Notes: generated by a model not told the origin, from the sequence alone. 64,000 nucleotides of DNA from Candidatus Woesearchaeota archaeon (GCA_016188215.1 JACPIF010000011.1:172159-236158); one strand, 5' to 3'; positions 20,762 through 25,545 are shown, counted from the stretch's first letter. Translations and numbers: made by a program.

Positions 20762-21127
20762 ATGGACGAGCCTGAAATAAATGAAGCATACTCGGGAAGC
20801 ATGCGCAATGGGGTGGTATTCACGACATTTTACATTGGATCCGACCCCATCAAAGGAAAAGTAATAGGTAGGGTATGGAGCAACAAAAACTTAGATCCGC
20901 CTTTTGACTGGCAACCGTATGAACGAGGCTTTTTAGGGTTGCCTATGGGATTGGGCTTGCATTCATACCAATCAAATGGTATTGTTTCAGTAACAGATTT
21001 TTCAGGCAGGCCTCTAGACGTTCCCGCAGGTCATATAAGCTTGATTGATCTGGTTCGTGAAGAATTGAAAGCAAGAATCAGGCTTGCATTGCAAAAGAAT
21101 CCCAACTTTTTAGAAAAGTTGCCATAA
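20762..21127 (+). CDS. Hypothetical protein
   Basis: ORF; start at 20738 or 20762. Confidence 0.6.
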   Translation: MDEPEINEAYSGSMRNGVVFTTFYIGSDPIKGKVIGRVWSNKNLDPPFDWQPYERGFLGLPMGLGLHSYQSNGIVSVTDFSGRPLDVPAGHISLIDLVREELKARIRLALQKNPNFLEKLP

Positions 21128-21128
21128 A

Positions 21129-21362
21129 ATGAGCCTTGACAATCTGGAGTTTCTAAAGGAAACAGTAATCTTTGGGCTTAAAGTTTCTTGCCCTATCTAT
21201 GGAGCATTTGTGCTTCGCAATAAATTAGAAGATACAATCCTCAATGATTGGGATTATTCGCCAGCCAAGGCTGCAGCAATAGCAACCGTAGGGGCAGGTG
21301 CCTTTGAACTGGCAAAATTGGGCATGGTAACTGTCGCAATCATATACCGCATGTATTATTGA
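21129..21362 (+). CDS. Small hypothetical membrane protein
   Basis: 77-aa ORF adjacent to the previous gene. Confidence 0.55.
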   Translation: MSLDNLEFLKETVIFGLKVSCPIYGAFVLRNKLEDTILNDWDYSPAKAAAIATVGAGAFELAKLGMVTVAIIYRMYY

Positions 21363-21402
21363 AAAAAAAGAAAAAAAATCTTCGCTCCCCATTGCTGGAG
21401 AG
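21362..21402 (-). terminator. Hairpin plus long U-tract downstream of ftsZ
   Basis: Minus strand CTCTCCA-GCAA-TGGGGAG followed by T8-C-T8. Confidence 0.75.
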
Positions 21403-21500
21403 GAAGAAAGATATTTGCCTTCAGTTGCTTATTTGTTGGGGGTGGTAAGTTAATGAAGGCAAAGAACTACCTCACCACACAAAGACCAAAGGGGTGACAA

Positions 21501-22571
21501 TCAGTGGATCACCTCTATCCCTAGCTCATCATCCATCTGTACTCTTCTGGATGCTGCAGCCCTGCTGTCATGCTTGCCCAGGATCCATGGGCTCTTCACT
21601 CCTGTGATAATTGTCATTACTGTCAGCTTTCCTTTCATGGTTTCTGAAACCCTTGCTCCCCAGATGACGTTTGCATCCTCATCCAGGCTCTCAGTCACCA
21701 GCTCTCCTACTTTATTGATCTCATCAAGTGTCATGTCCGGCCCGCCTTCCACATGGATAAGCGCTCCGGTCGCGCCTTTATAGCTTATGTCAAGCAGCGG
21801 ATTGCTCAAAGCTCCCTTAACAGCCTCATCTACCCTGTTATTTGTATCCGAAGCCCCTACGCCAATGACTGCTACCCCTCCATTTGTCATTATAGCCTTG
21901 ACATCAGCATAGTCCAGGTTGACTAGCGAAGGAACCGCTATAGTCTCCACAATGCCCCTAATCATTGTTGCAATCAGCTCATTAGCCACCGCAAATGCTT
22001 GTTGAATAGGCAAATTGCCCGCAATCTGAACCAGTCTATTGTTATCAATCACTATTACAGTATCAGAAACCTTCCTGAGCTGCTGCAATCCAAATTCTGC
22101 CTTGTCAATCCTTGCCCTTTCAATCTTAAATGGCATGGTTACTGTTCCTATTACTATAGCACCTGCATCCTTGGCAATCTGCGCAACAACAGGGCATGCT
22201 CCTGTTCCGGTGCCGCCTCCCATGCCGCCGCAGACAAATACCATATCTGCTCCCCGTAAAGATTCTTTCAGTTCCTGCAGAGCCTCTTTAGCAGCCTCAG
22301 CTCCCTTTTCCGGGAACCCGCCGCAGCCCAGTCCTCTGGTAACATCCTTTCCAATCAGGAACTTTCGATCAGCCTCAGAAATGTCAATATGCTGCTTATC
22401 AGTGTTGCATGCTATAATCTCAGCACCCCGTATCCCTTTCCTATAGAGCCAGCTTACCATATTATTGCCGGCCCCGCCAACACCAATAACCTTTATGTTT
22501 GCCTGTCCAACAGAAATCTCATTTTGAGGTGCGTTTTTTAGCGCCTCACCCACAAACAGCTCCATAGCCAT
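21501..22571 (-). CDS. ftsZ: Cell division protein FtsZ (FtsZ2-like)
   Basis: GVGGAGNN, GMGGGTGTG and NLDYADV motifs; 'PFKIERAR' resembles archaeal FtsZ2. Confidence 0.97.
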   Translation of the reverse strand: MAMELFVGEALKNAPQNEISVGQANIKVIGVGGAGNNMVSWLYRKGIRGAEIIACNTDKQHIDISEADRKFLIGKDVTRGLGCGGFPEKGAEAAKEALQELKESLRGADMVFVCGGMGGGTGTGACPVVAQIAKDAGAIVIGTVTMPFKIERARIDKAEFGLQQLRKVSDTVIVIDNNRLVQIAGNLPIQQAFAVANELIATMIRGIVETIAVPSLVNLDYADVKAIMTNGGVAVIGVGASDTNNRVDEAVKGALSNPLLDISYKGATGALIHVEGGPDMTLDEINKVGELVTESLDEDANVIWGARVSETMKGKLTVMTIITGVKSPWILGKHDSRAAASRRVQMDDELGIEVIH

Positions 22572-23003
22572 ATCGTTCAACCCCTTGTTTAAAGTCCCGG
22601 ACTCCTTTACTCCGGCACCTCAGTTTTTTGTCTTTGTAATACCCCAATGTGGTATTAATATTATAGTTTCCATTACAACAATCTTTTTATAATGGAAAGT
22701 CCATCAACTCCCTTAGAAAACAGTTTAATTGCTTACGCCAATAAGTAATTAAGACTTACACAACACACATTTCAAACAAAGCAACCGTAATCAGTCCGTT
22801 TTCGCCAAAAAACGCCTGATCCATTGAGTTTTTCGCCAAAAAAGCTCAATAAAGGTTTTCTTTATATTCATCTTTATAAGCAAATGACTATTTAAATGTT
22901 TCTATCAGCTTGCAGGGAATTCTCAAAGTTTATCGTCGACAAATCTGCTTTAAAACCAAGAATCACGGATTTGTATACTGGTAGAATTTAGAGCCTCTTT
23001 AGC

Positions 23004-23699
23004 CTATTTCTTATCCCTTTTTGCAATCTTATCATGCAGGTTTCCTATGAACTCTTTAGTCTTCTCTATGTACTTCCCCACTTTAAGGCTTGGGTAACCC
23101 ATAGTGATGGCAATGTCCTTAATCTGCTGTCCCATCTTCCAGCGTTCTATCATTGTTACCTGCTCCAGCTTATACTTGGTAGGCACCGGCGGCTCTTCAT
23201 CAGCATAGCCAAGGGTAATGATAGCCTGCGGCCTAGCTTGCTCCGGCATCATCACTGCTCTTTTCACGCCATCCTCATCAAACGCACCCACCCAGCATGC
23301 GCCTAACCCAAGATAATGGGCTGCCAGCAGCATATTCTGGCAGGCAGCCGCGCAATCCTGTATTGCATACAGCCGTTCCCCTCTAACTCCATAAAACCTG
23401 CGATGCTTCTCAAACTGGGAAACGACAATTATATGAACCTTTGCAGAGCCCATCCAGTATTGCTGCAGTGCAGCCTCAGCCAACATCCTTATTTTAGCAG
23501 GATCTGTTATTACCACAAACTTCCATGCCTGTATATTTCCAGCTGATGGCGCAGCCCTTCCCGCCTCAAGAATCTTTCCTACCTTGTCCCATTCAACAGG
23601 GATATCCCTATACTTCCTGATAGAACGTCTGGTATAGATGACCTCGAGCGTATCCATCTCGCTGGGATCTTTTGTAAGATGTTGAACTGCCTCTGCCAC
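23004..23699 (-). CDS. Nitroreductase-family protein
   Basis: RRSIRKY, APSAGNIQAW and GLGACWVG motifs. Confidence 0.9.
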   Translation of the reverse strand: MAEAVQHLTKDPSEMDTLEVIYTRRSIRKYRDIPVEWDKVGKILEAGRAAPSAGNIQAWKFVVITDPAKIRMLAEAALQQYWMGSAKVHIIVVSQFEKHRRFYGVRGERLYAIQDCAAACQNMLLAAHYLGLGACWVGAFDEDGVKRAVMMPEQARPQAIITLGYADEEPPVPTKYKLEQVTMIERWKMGQQIKDIAITMGYPSLKVGKYIEKTKEFIGNLHDKIAKRDKK

Positions 23700-23787
23700 G
23701 CTTCATTCCTGGCTATACTAGTATTTATAGTTAACGAGGTCTTTGGGTGCAGTTAACTTTTTATAAAAAGCTCTTTTCTATCTAGGC

Positions 23788-25545
23788 ATGGACTACAAAA
23801 AGCTGGTAGATGTCTATGAAGCGCTGGGCAGCACCACAAAGCGCCTTAAGAAAACAGCAATCATAGCAGAGCTCCTGAAGCAGACTAATGCTGACATCCA
23901 GAAACTTATGCTCTTGCTGCAGGGCAGAGTATTCCCTACATGGGATCAAAGGGAATTGGGAGTTGCAGACCGCCTGCTCATAAAGGCGATTGCAGCATCT
24001 TCAGGGGCGACCTCAGATAAGGTAGAGAGGGAATTCGCCAAGACTGGTGATTTGGGCTTGGCTGCTGAATCGCTGTTAAGGAATCGCAGGCAATCTACCT
24101 TGACTTCCCGCTCCTTAACCATAACAAAGGTCTTTGACAATATAAGGAAGGTTGCAGAATTCCAGGGCAAGGGAACCGTAGAGCGCAAGCTCCAGCTCAT
24201 TTCAGAGCTTCTTACCACAGCAACAGCGAAAGAAGCTAAGTACATCGTTAGGACCATAAGCGGCAACCTAAGGGTAGGCATCGGCTCCGGCTCAATACGG
24301 GATGCCATAGTCTGGGCATTCTTCGGTAAAGAGCTTGAGCTAAAATATGATGATAAGGATGAGGCAATTAAAGTCAGGGACAGGGCTGATTTTGGAAAGT
24401 ATCTGGATGCAGTCCAATCTGCATACGATTTAACAAATGATTTCTCAGTTGTGGCAGAAGCTGCTCAAACAAAAGGCCTTAAAGGTTTGTCTACCATCTC
24501 CTTGAAAGTAGGCATTCCCATCAAAGTCATGCTCGCCCAGAAAGCTAAGGATGTAGAGGACGGCTTCAGGCAGGTAGGGAAGCCGGCAGCCATAGAATAC
24601 AAGTATGACGGCTTCAGGATCCAGCTCCATAAGTCAAAAGGCACAATCTCATTGTTCACGCGGCGCCTGGAAAATGTTACAAAGCAGTTTCCTGATGTTG
24701 TCAAGTACGCTAAAGAGTACATCAAGGGCAATGAATATATCCTGGATTCAGAAGCTGTCGGCTATTCTCCAAAAACCAGGAAATACCTCCCGTTCCAGAT
24801 GGTATCCCAGCGCATCAAGCGGAAGTATGACATTAGCAAGCTTGAGCAGGAGCTGCCTGTTGAAGTCAACATTTTTGATGTTATTTATTATGAAGGCAAG
24901 AACTACATAAGCACTCCTTTCAGGGAGCGCCGGAAGCTCGTTGAAAAGATAGTAAAATCAGTCCCCCTTAAAATAAAGCCATGTGAGCATATTGAAAGCA
25001 GTAATGAGGAAGAAGCCAAGAAGTTTCTTGCGAAAGCCCTGGATTCTGGAAACGAGGGAGTGATGCTCAAGGCTTTGGATGCGCCTTACAAGCCAGGCTC
25101 CAGGGTCGGCTACATGCTCAAGCTCAAGCCTTCATTTGATACCCTTGACCTGGTTGTCATAGGTGCAGACTGGGGTGAAGGCAAGCGGGCAAAATACCTG
25201 AGCTCGTTCTATATCGCCTGTGTAGATGAAGACGGCAATTTCAAGGAAATAGGCAAAGTAGCCTCTGGCATCAAAGAGCTGGAAGACTCAGCAGAAGGTG
25301 CCACGATGCAGCAGATGACCTCATTATTGAAGCCATTGTTCACAAGCGAAAAAGGGAAGACAATTACCGTCAAGCCTAAGGTAGTAATAGAGGTTGAATA
25401 TGGAGAAATCCAGAAATCTCCGACATATAGCAGCGGCTATGCGCTTAGGTTTCCAAGAATTAAGACAGTAAGGGAAGACAGAAAAGCTGACGACGCAACA
25501 ACTCTAAATGAAATTGAGAAGCTGTATAAGGAGCAGAATAAGTAG
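23788..25545 (+). CDS. lig: ATP-dependent DNA ligase
   Basis: EYKYDGFR, EGVMLK and ALRFPRI motifs. Confidence 0.97.
   Translation: MDYKKLVDVYEALGSTTKRLKKTAIIAELLKQTNADIQKLMLLLQGRVFPTWDQRELGVADRLLIKAIAASSGATSDKVEREFAKTGDLGLAAESLLRNRRQSTLTSRSLTITKVFDNIRKVAEFQGKGTVERKLQLISELLTTATAKEAKYIVRTISGNLRVGIGSGSIRDAIVWAFFGKELELKYDDKDEAIKVRDRADFGKYLDAVQSAYDLTNDFSVVAEAAQTKGLKGLSTISLKVGIPIKVMLAQKAKDVEDGFRQVGKPAAIEYKYDGFRIQLHKSKGTISLFTRRLENVTKQFPDVVKYAKEYIKGNEYILDSEAVGYSPKTRKYLPFQMVSQRIKRKYDISKLEQELPVEVNIFDVIYYEGKNYISTPFRERRKLVEKIVKSVPLKIKPCEHIESSNEEEAKKFLAKALDSGNEGVMLKALDAPYKPGSRVGYMLKLKPSFDTLDLVVIGADWGEGKRAKYLSSFYIACVDEDGNFKEIGKVASGIKELEDSAEGATMQQMTSLLKPLFTSEKGKTITVKPKVVIEVEYGEIQKSPTYSSGYALRFPRIKTVREDRKADDATTLNEIEKLYKEQNK

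Follow-up and report, generated by a model that had tools for sequence, protein, structure and literature searches.

A conserved array of UUGGCG-loop hairpins in the predicted leader of an FtsZ2-like gene of DPANN archaea, with a candidate antisense RNA

The ftsZ locus and its genome

The window, that is, the whole stretch of 64,000 nucleotides that was analysed, belongs to a genome of 1.11 Mb in 13 contigs that is 91% complete (G000). The source organism, one of the tiny archaea found in groundwater, is a Woesearchaeota-type DPANN archaeon and not a euryarchaeon. To our knowledge, DPANN archaea cannot yet be grown alone, and archaeal FtsZ regulation is known to us only at the level of proteins and transcription factors, with none known for DPANN. 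In the window, a gap of 432 nt separates an ftsZ gene from a co-directional nitroreductase-family gene, and three hairpins lie in this gap. The genes and hairpins are listed below; R1 is a covariance model of the hairpin.

21501-22571, minus strand: ftsZ coding sequence, putatively of an FtsZ2-like paralog (ATG 22571-22569; from the ORF list; TIGR00065 392.6 bits)
22580-22586, minus strand: Shine-Dalgarno sequence AAGGGGT of ftsZ, read from the sequence
22725-22752, both strands: hairpin C (arms of 11 nt, 91% complementary; loop 22736-22741; R1 31.9 bits)
~22790-22820, both strands: hairpin B, bulged (loop 22803-22808; R1 23 bits)
22823-22850, both strands: hairpin A (arms of 11 nt, 91% complementary; loop 22834-22839; R1 31.6 bits)
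23004-23699, co-directional with ftsZ: nitroreductase-family gene

Three FtsZ genes are encoded in G000, namely the copy at 21501-22571, a copy on contig C7 that is 81% identical to it, and a copy at C2:83612 that is 51% identical. The M. jannaschii protein "FtsZ homolog 1" scores 443 bits for the C2:83612 paralog vs 313 bits for the copy in the window. Because the former is much nearer to this protein, the gene at 21501-22571 is plausibly FtsZ2-like, a typing that is taken from one reference protein. The Shine-Dalgarno sequence recurs as AAGGGGGT 5' of the ftsZ start in the upstream sequences of related loci. The C7 paralog (G000:C7:64185-65261, L152) has a usual proximal promoter, aacatttaaatataag, and its leader of about 75 nt lacks hairpin loops. 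Since the C7 copy combines a proximal promoter with the lack of a loop array, the two FtsZ2-like copies appear to be regulated differently. In the same genome, ARAGORN found only 19 tRNA genes, many of them interrupted by an intron at the canonical position or close to it; the set is either incomplete or difficult to recognise.

In the cdrS-ftsZ2 operon of Halobacteria, a small ribbon-helix-helix ORF lies directly upstream of an FtsZ2-type gene. A first-pass annotation of this DNA had seen no such ORF, and the ORF scan agrees. ORFs in the intergenic region upstream of ftsZ do not exceed 35 aa; nine of 23-35 aa lie inside or overlap this region, and no small ORF of the cdrS kind was found directly 5' of ftsZ. 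A small ORF that spans hairpins A and B (26-30 aa) was rejected, as it is not kept in the same genus; in the same-genus genome G002, the ATG after the promoter P1 (see below) meets a stop after 8 codons. The locus resembles cdrS-ftsZ2 in that putative dedicated regulation lies directly upstream of an FtsZ2-type gene. It differs in having RNA hairpins in place of a small ORF, and it belongs to a different phylum.

An array of hairpins with one loop

Hairpins A, B, and C have different stems and an identical loop, which reads CGCCAA on the plus strand and UUGGCG on the ftsZ sense (minus) strand. A 14-nt core, TTTTCGCCAAAAAA, is common to hairpins A and B, in which it recurs 31 nt apart, and the sole mismatch of hairpin C is an A.C on the sense strand, equivalent to a G.U on the antisense strand. 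With the two strands counted separately, G000 contains 386 hairpins that combine a 6-nt loop and a stem of 9 bp or more (at most one mismatch), and the TTGGCG loop is present in two of them, both at ftsZ. A scan of the 1.11 Mb genome with R1 at E<=10 returned three sites, only A, B, and C. The three-hairpin array is far from chance, and the sequence, the genome-wide count, and the R1 scan all confirm what the first-pass annotation had described, three hairpins with unlike stems and the same CGCCAA loop at these places.

Rfam release 15 (4227 models) holds no matching family. The best scores, 12.4-17.1 bits vs gathering scores of 45-154, are matches at chance level to microRNA or thermometer models. 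Because no Rfam family matches, the array adds a candidate family to the RNA catalogue. An "ftsZ-DE" motif is reportedly due to Weinberg et al. in 2017. The word ftsZ is absent from the main text of PMC5737381, whose supplement could overlap the array. Among the literature matches listed, none was relevant by title or abstract as a prior description of the array or of an archaeal ftsZ antisense RNA. The array is a real and strongly conserved RNA element that was found neither in Rfam nor in the listed titles and abstracts of the literature searched.

Conservation in related ftsZ loci

Conservation was studied in 127 ftsZ loci whose upstream sequence extends for at least 300 nt; four of these rows were later found to be duplicates. 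The first-pass annotation had proposed a comparison of ftsZ2 upstream regions from related genomes. Within 300 nt upstream, a sense TTGGCG occurs at least once in 69 of the 127 loci and at least twice in 62, and the stems covary. Over all 127 loci, the hexamer was counted 182 times on the sense strand vs once on the antisense strand, with about 7.6 expected from the genome frequency. The number of hairpins ranges from 1 to 6 per locus, and their spacing also varies. In the related genomes, the array sits on contigs of up to about 910 kb.

Pairing was evaluated in several ways. At least five contiguous pairs adjoin the loop directly in 106 of the 180 loops of the de-duplicated set vs 1.7% of control positions. 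A gapless stem alignment (A3) was made from 109 hairpins that had been picked for at least six pairs; 81.2% of its cells are paired vs 47.0% when shuffled, a figure that is partly circular because of this selection. The covariation score of A3 is 0.806 vs 0.191 for shuffled alignments, and none of 500 shuffles reached it. Each Watson-Crick pair type is represented at the inner seven positions of the stem, every stem position changes on both sides, and a slide of the partner by one column cuts the pairing to about 52%. Among the 242 perfect hairpins of at least 6 bp that lie at -300 to -50 in 123 loci, 75 have the loop TTGGCG; six more carry TTGGCG with a U.G closing pair, and the next commonest loop is seen three times.

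The rare variant loops mostly retain UUGG, as in UUGGCU (L113, L124), UUGGUAG (L029), UUGGACA (L053), UUGGAAG (L014), and UUGGUG together with UUGGCA (L026); UUGACG (L003, L022) is the exception. The loops are mostly alike inside one genome, and all copies change together in L113/L124, L029, and L053.

Specificity for one ftsZ paralog

When 41 genomes of the order were scanned with R1 at E<=1, 43 matches were obtained, of which 38 are located just upstream of ftsZ. Three of the other five belong to arrays of the same architecture at contig ends, where the gene is cut off, and two lie elsewhere. Many of the array hairpins trained R1, so the informative result is the near-absence of matches elsewhere. 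In a class-wide sample, a match at E<=0.3 was found in 22 of 151 genomes. Fourteen matches from other orders were examined, and ten of these are upstream of ftsZ genes that are 60-74% identical to the gene at 21501-22571, with 2-4 loops each. Three of the remaining matches are lone hairpins without ftsZ nearby, and one is the hairpin of locus L137.

On the FtsZ tree, the motif is clustered: 18 changes are needed vs 39.7 with shuffled labels, and none of 500 shuffles was as low. Second close ftsZ paralogs have no TTGGCG loop of this kind. No conserved neighbour gene of the array was seen, and the upstream neighbours differ in orientation. Judged from these comparisons of sequences, the array is tied to the cell-division gene across the class and is conserved in at least two orders.

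Two lone hairpins may be described separately. The L137 hairpin (G086:C14:34501-34528) has the UUGGCG loop and lies past a good BRE/TATA. A weak FtsZ-like match on the opposite strand starts at a distance of about 115 nt. The L147 hairpin (G019:C2:20355-20382), cctttgttTTGGCGaacaaagc, has the same stem as in the ftsZ array of that genome and is found about 40 nt upstream of a 73-aa ORF without a Pfam match.

Promoters and predicted transcripts

Promoters were calibrated on G000 with 183 TTTAWAWW boxes that stand 20-27 nt before the ATG of ORFs of at least 100 aa. This position of the boxes indicates that the genome is largely leaderless, as the first-pass annotation had held. The resulting rule consists of a BRE, [AC][AG]NAA, at -7 to -3, a spacer of 2 nt, TTTAWATA, and a transcription start 22-24 nt after the TATA box. 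The BRE gives the direction: an ATG follows 20-29 nt downstream in 21 of 72 GAAA-N(1-3)-TTTAWATW sites vs 1 of 72 when reversed. According to this rule, the intergenic region has two promoter-like sites that face each other across the hairpins.

22889-22903, minus strand: sense promoter P1 (BRE AGAAA 22903-22899, spacer CA, TATA TTTAAATA 22896-22889; PWM 17.1)
22572-22865, minus strand: predicted ftsZ 5' leader of ~294 nt, placed by the position of P1 and the 22-24 nt rule, with the hairpins in its first ~140 nt
22677-22691, plus strand: antisense-oriented promoter Pas (BRE AACAA 22677-22681, TATA TTTTTATA 22684-22691; PWM 10.7, weak in G000)
22713-22721, plus strand: initiator-like TTAGAAAAC, with the predicted antisense start at A 22715, 24 nt after the TATA box
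22715-22865, plus strand: predicted antisense RNA of ~150 nt with three CGCCAA hexaloops and no ATG
22856-22863, plus strand: T-rich tract TTTTCTTT after the last antisense hairpin, read from the sequence

P1 is the minus-strand TATA element that the first-pass annotation had placed upstream of the array (BRE/TATA 22903-22889), and the start predicted near 22865 agrees with its estimate of a leader of about 290 nt. P1 is kept in the genus alignment A2, and a sense site scoring at least 11 is located upstream of the first hairpin in 62 related loci. In 56 of these 62, the first hairpin starts at least 22 nt after the P1 TATA box (median 34 nt), from which it follows that the sense RNA should contain the first hairpin.

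Pas, which points the opposite way between the hairpins and ftsZ, is a conserved predicted promoter that the first-pass annotation missed. In the segment from the last hairpin to the ATG, an antisense site scoring at least 14 is present at 44 of 67 motif loci vs 9 of 55 motif-free loci, with 0.014 expected per segment. A sense site of the same strength is found there in 0 of 67 motif loci vs 16 of 55 motif-free loci. In the absence of a proximal sense site, transcription of ftsZ in motif loci must begin at P1, so that the mRNA includes the array. The PWM score of Pas is 10.7 in G000 and 18.1 and 18.5 in two same-genus genomes, and 13 of the 67 motif loci have no antisense site of at least 11 in that segment. 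A consensus Y-T-A/G-R-A-A follows the antisense TATA box by 22-27 nt in 54 loci. The last hairpin is followed by a short conserved box whose sense-strand sequence is UUCUAAG; on the antisense strand, this box is a pyrimidine run and then TAGAA, and the spacing of TAGAA after the Pas TATA box matches where G000 starts its transcripts.

For the 3' end of the antisense RNA, the T-rich tract at 22856-22863 is a weak candidate. An A-run of at least 5 precedes hairpin 1 in 21 of 62 loci, a count that has no control set, and could at most hint at such an end.

The idea that Pas serves a divergent protein gene was rejected: the upstream neighbour runs in the same direction in 30 motif loci and in the opposite one in 36, several of these 36 being spurious ORFs. 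In family f51 of another order (L136, L138-L142, L144), a palindromic ATTTAAAT with A-rich flanks occupies the place of Pas and could fire either way or both. The direction of the TATA box is ambiguous there because ATTTAAAT is palindromic, and the fixed-width PWM even favours the sense direction.

Further inverted repeats had been noted in the first-pass annotation at 22637-22657 and 22667-22698. Both exist in G000, but the latter, which encloses the antisense-oriented TATA box, is not a conserved structure. As a conserved hairpin around Pas it was rejected, with a mean of 3.7 pairs vs 3.6 at P1 and 3.3 at the 183 control promoters. Hairpins at 22637-22657 and 22594-22612 lie between Pas and the ribosome-binding site and have no evident counterpart in two same-genus genomes.

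Which strand folds

The fold of the predicted antisense RNA of G000 consists of the three hairpins and no others, each with a CGCCAA hexaloop (z=-5.25; none of 200 shuffles equalled it), and the sense strand of the same interval has z=-1.48. Of 50 loci, 43 have a lower folding z-score for the antisense than for the sense strand, a difference to which base composition contributes. In the linkers, no strand skew was seen (G 16.2% vs C 13.7%).

Constrained folds of single hairpins depend on their position. Next to Pas, the antisense strand forms the stabler hairpin in 40 loci and the sense strand in 6 (mean -8.7 vs -5.4 kcal/mol); next to P1, the sense strand forms the stabler one in 25 loci and the antisense strand in 13. 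Between Watson-Crick pairs, non-canonical pairs are A.C on the sense strand (G.U on the antisense strand) in 28 cases vs G.U on the sense strand in 14. The closing pair shows the reverse, with nine sense G.U and no A.C. Both strands show signs of selection.

Comparison with known systems

The loop pair is itself a known kissing pair, which the first-pass annotation had not recognised. IRE/IRP and CsrA systems are built from several hairpins in an untranslated region that have the same apical loop (GGA in the case of CsrA) and free stems. The ftsZ array shares this design; it differs from IRE/IRP and CsrA leaders in having a conserved predicted antisense promoter, which these systems are not known to have.

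Antisense control of plasmid replication is a closer comparison. The Rfam model of CopA (RF00042) finds the CopA of R100 at 106.3 bits, and CGCCAA stands at the apex both in the consensus and in R100, where the match shows one CGCCAA. Because the CopA apex reads CGCCAA, the target loop in the repA leader is UUGGCG. We take CopA to have one main recognition loop. Inc RNA/repZ of the I-complex plasmids is reportedly associated with the work of Asano et al. from 1998, as cited in an IncK plasmid paper. In CopA/CopT (IncFII) and Inc RNA/repZ, as predicted here for the ftsZ array, an antisense RNA comes from inside the leader of the regulated mRNA. The polarity is also that of CopA/CopT, with CGCCAA on the antisense RNA and UUGGCG on the mRNA leader, and the CopA/CopT target loop has a YUNR U-turn, as do the UUGGCG loops at ftsZ. 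The YUNR motif is described as ubiquitous in a recognition loop of antisense systems that work by loop-loop contact (PMC4485353). UUGG fits YUNR and opens every UUGGCG loop.

The differences from CopA/CopT are equally clear. No match to RF00042 at E<=10 was obtained in 22000-23600 or 22700-22870, and there is no sequence or structure match of the array to this family. The promoters of the ftsZ array are archaeal BRE/TATA elements and those of CopA/CopT bacterial, and the target is a chromosomal ftsZ gene here vs a plasmid replication initiator there. The array has 1-6 hairpins with identical loops, no leader peptide was seen, and no RNase III gene was found, all unlike CopA/CopT. The likeness must be convergent.

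A second occurrence of the pair is viral. In Pelargonium line pattern virus, compensatory mutants support base pairing between the CGCCAA loop of the 3' enhancer and the UUGGCG loops at the apex of 5' hairpins (PMC4820102). This 5'-3' kissing of tombusvirids, with the TED-like enhancer of the virus, uses the same hexaloops as the ftsZ array; it differs in being a long-range contact inside one RNA that promotes translation in a eukaryotic host and does not involve an antisense transcript.

Proposed mechanism and alternative explanations

The sequence comparisons support an RNA-level element in a predicted long leader downstream of a conserved promoter. It is placed at the level of RNA and is not taken as a DNA operator, because the stems covary freely while the loop stays fixed. 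This part of the first-pass interpretation, an RNA element in a long leader at a cell-division gene, stands, and the small RNA that it offered as an alternative comes near to the antisense reading. The array probably sets the amount of division protein that is made.

Given the conserved opposite promoter and a kissing pair that is known from antisense control, a pair of antisense RNA and leader is the better explanation. The simplest model that uses every conserved feature is such a pair lowering FtsZ2 output, which would be CopA/CopT-like without being a member of that family. We infer the transcription of either strand, the pairing of the RNAs, and the effect on FtsZ; the ten sequencing runs listed for 21000-24500 are all DNA metagenomes. 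With a little more confidence than doubt, we suggest that multivalent U-turn kissing loops let the ftsZ leader pair with a cis-antisense RNA of about 150 nt.

In this mechanism, the ftsZ mRNA would start at the distal P1 (~22865, minus strand), and its leader of about 294 nt would open with the three UUGGCG-hexaloop hairpins. Pas, inside the leader, would make an untranslated RNA of about 150 nt (~22715-22865, plus strand), exactly complementary to the hairpin region and with CGCCAA in its loops. The first contact of the two RNAs would be loop-loop kissing, with UUGG as the YUNR U-turn, and any leader loop could dock with any antisense loop because all loops are alike. Pairing would then spread to a duplex and lower FtsZ output. 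Candidate routes are mRNA decay, blocked translation, and early termination at the U-rich stretch that follows the last hairpin, and the collision of convergent polymerases may add to the effect. No RNase III gene was found in the 91%-complete genome, which bears on the fate of any sense/antisense duplex.

Several observations count against the antisense reading. Pas is weak in G000 (10.7), 13 of the 67 motif loci have no site of at least 11, the direction in f51 is ambiguous, and the closing pairs are sense G.U in nine cases vs A.C in none. The ribosome-binding site is also about 130 nt beyond the paired region. In addition, a cis-antisense pair is complementary whatever the loop sequence, so the near-invariance of the six loop bases needs an added assumption. 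The uniformity of the loops suggests either that any two of them can dock or that a protein reads them.

A protein reader is the basis of the main rival explanation, that of the first-pass annotation, in which only the sense RNA matters and the UUGGCG hairpins are multivalent sites for an RNA-binding protein that sets the stability or translation of ftsZ mRNA, in the way of IRE/IRP or CsrA. An invariant loop on variable stems in several copies is what this explanation expects, one shared reader would fit the loops of a genome being mostly identical and varying together, P1 and hairpin 1 are placed so that the mRNA begins with the array, and the closing pairs favour the sense strand (G.U 9, A.C 0). 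It is nevertheless unlikely in our estimate: it leaves unexplained both the conserved antisense promoter with a correctly spaced initiator and the sense A.C mismatches (G.U on the other strand) in the promoter-proximal hairpin, neither a candidate protein nor a conserved neighbour gene was found, and this exact loop pair is already known as an RNA-RNA kissing pair. In another explanation, the antisense transcript is itself the functional product: a small RNA whose CGCCAA loops would act in trans or titrate a protein, its overlap with the leader being incidental. The better folding of the antisense strand, the conservation of Pas and its initiator, and the optimisation of the Pas-adjacent hairpin on the antisense strand all agree with this. 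Such an RNA would, however, have no structured target in trans, since G000 contains no other hairpin with a UUGGCG or CGCCAA loop, and the array was found at this ftsZ paralog alone. The sense promoter is conserved to the same degree, and as there is no proximal one, the ftsZ mRNA must read through the complement. We consider an action of this kind quite improbable.

Two further explanations can be given very little weight. The first-pass annotation had raised the alternative of DNA operators, to which cruciforms bound by a transcription factor may be added; the two copies that lie 31 bp apart in G000 and the location between two promoters would suit such an element. It is a highly improbable one, because what is conserved is the 6-nt centre, and the arms differ wholly yet stay complementary, which is the opposite of a palindromic operator. 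Stem covariation around a fixed loop, an orientation to ftsZ that is fixed at 182 to 1, and the variation in copy number (1-6) and spacing argue in the same direction. In T-boxes, a bulge pairs with the 3' end of uncharged tRNAs, and a tRNA-sensing leader could similarly use the loop UGGC to pair with the GCCA 3' end, coupling division to amino-acid supply. This is less probable still, as the complementarity of UGGC and GCCA is all that favours it; no specifier or T-box-like architecture is present, the anticodon loops of G000 do not match (CUGGCA in tRNA-Ala(GGC)), and the antisense promoter is left unexplained. Mimicry of an anticodon arm was likewise dropped, as CUGGCA of tRNA-Ala(GGC) and UUGGUAA of tRNA-Thr(GGU) differ from the loop among the 19 tRNAs detected.

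Implications

An extension of the antisense reading, which we hold more tentatively than the pairing itself and with doubt slightly the stronger, is that a class of ultra-small DPANN archaea independently arrived at a plasmid copy-number device and applied it to chromosomal division. The antisense RNA would then be a dose counter for one FtsZ2 paralog. Each RNA would offer up to six identical kissing loops, pairing would be register-independent because any loop can dock with any other, and division could possibly be tied to growth state or host contact. A dose counter of this kind would be a conserved antisense regulator of archaeal division, not found described in the literature searched, and a case of convergent RNA design across domains.

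If the antisense reading is true, the UUGGCG/CGCCAA U-turn pair would represent a convergent optimum of bacterial plasmids, plant viruses, and archaeal chromosomes. It would also provide a simple marker and an antisense knock-down handle for division in uncultured archaea. The array is a sharply defined and testable RNA element that is tied to a single ftsZ paralog in DPANN archaea, and in any case it is a clean example of a long structured leader in an otherwise leaderless genome.

A palindromic box upstream of P1

Upstream of P1, a near-palindromic box, GTCGACGATAAAC, is located at 22928-22940 on the minus strand, and elsewhere it takes forms like TTATCG(A/T)CGA(T/G/C)AA. With copies at coding starts set aside, it is found at about -270 to -420 in some related ftsZ loci (about 20 of 122), with or without the hairpin motif. 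The 7-mer core of the box has only seven copies in all of G000. From its sequence, the box looks like a transcription-factor operator that may be common to FtsZ2-type genes.
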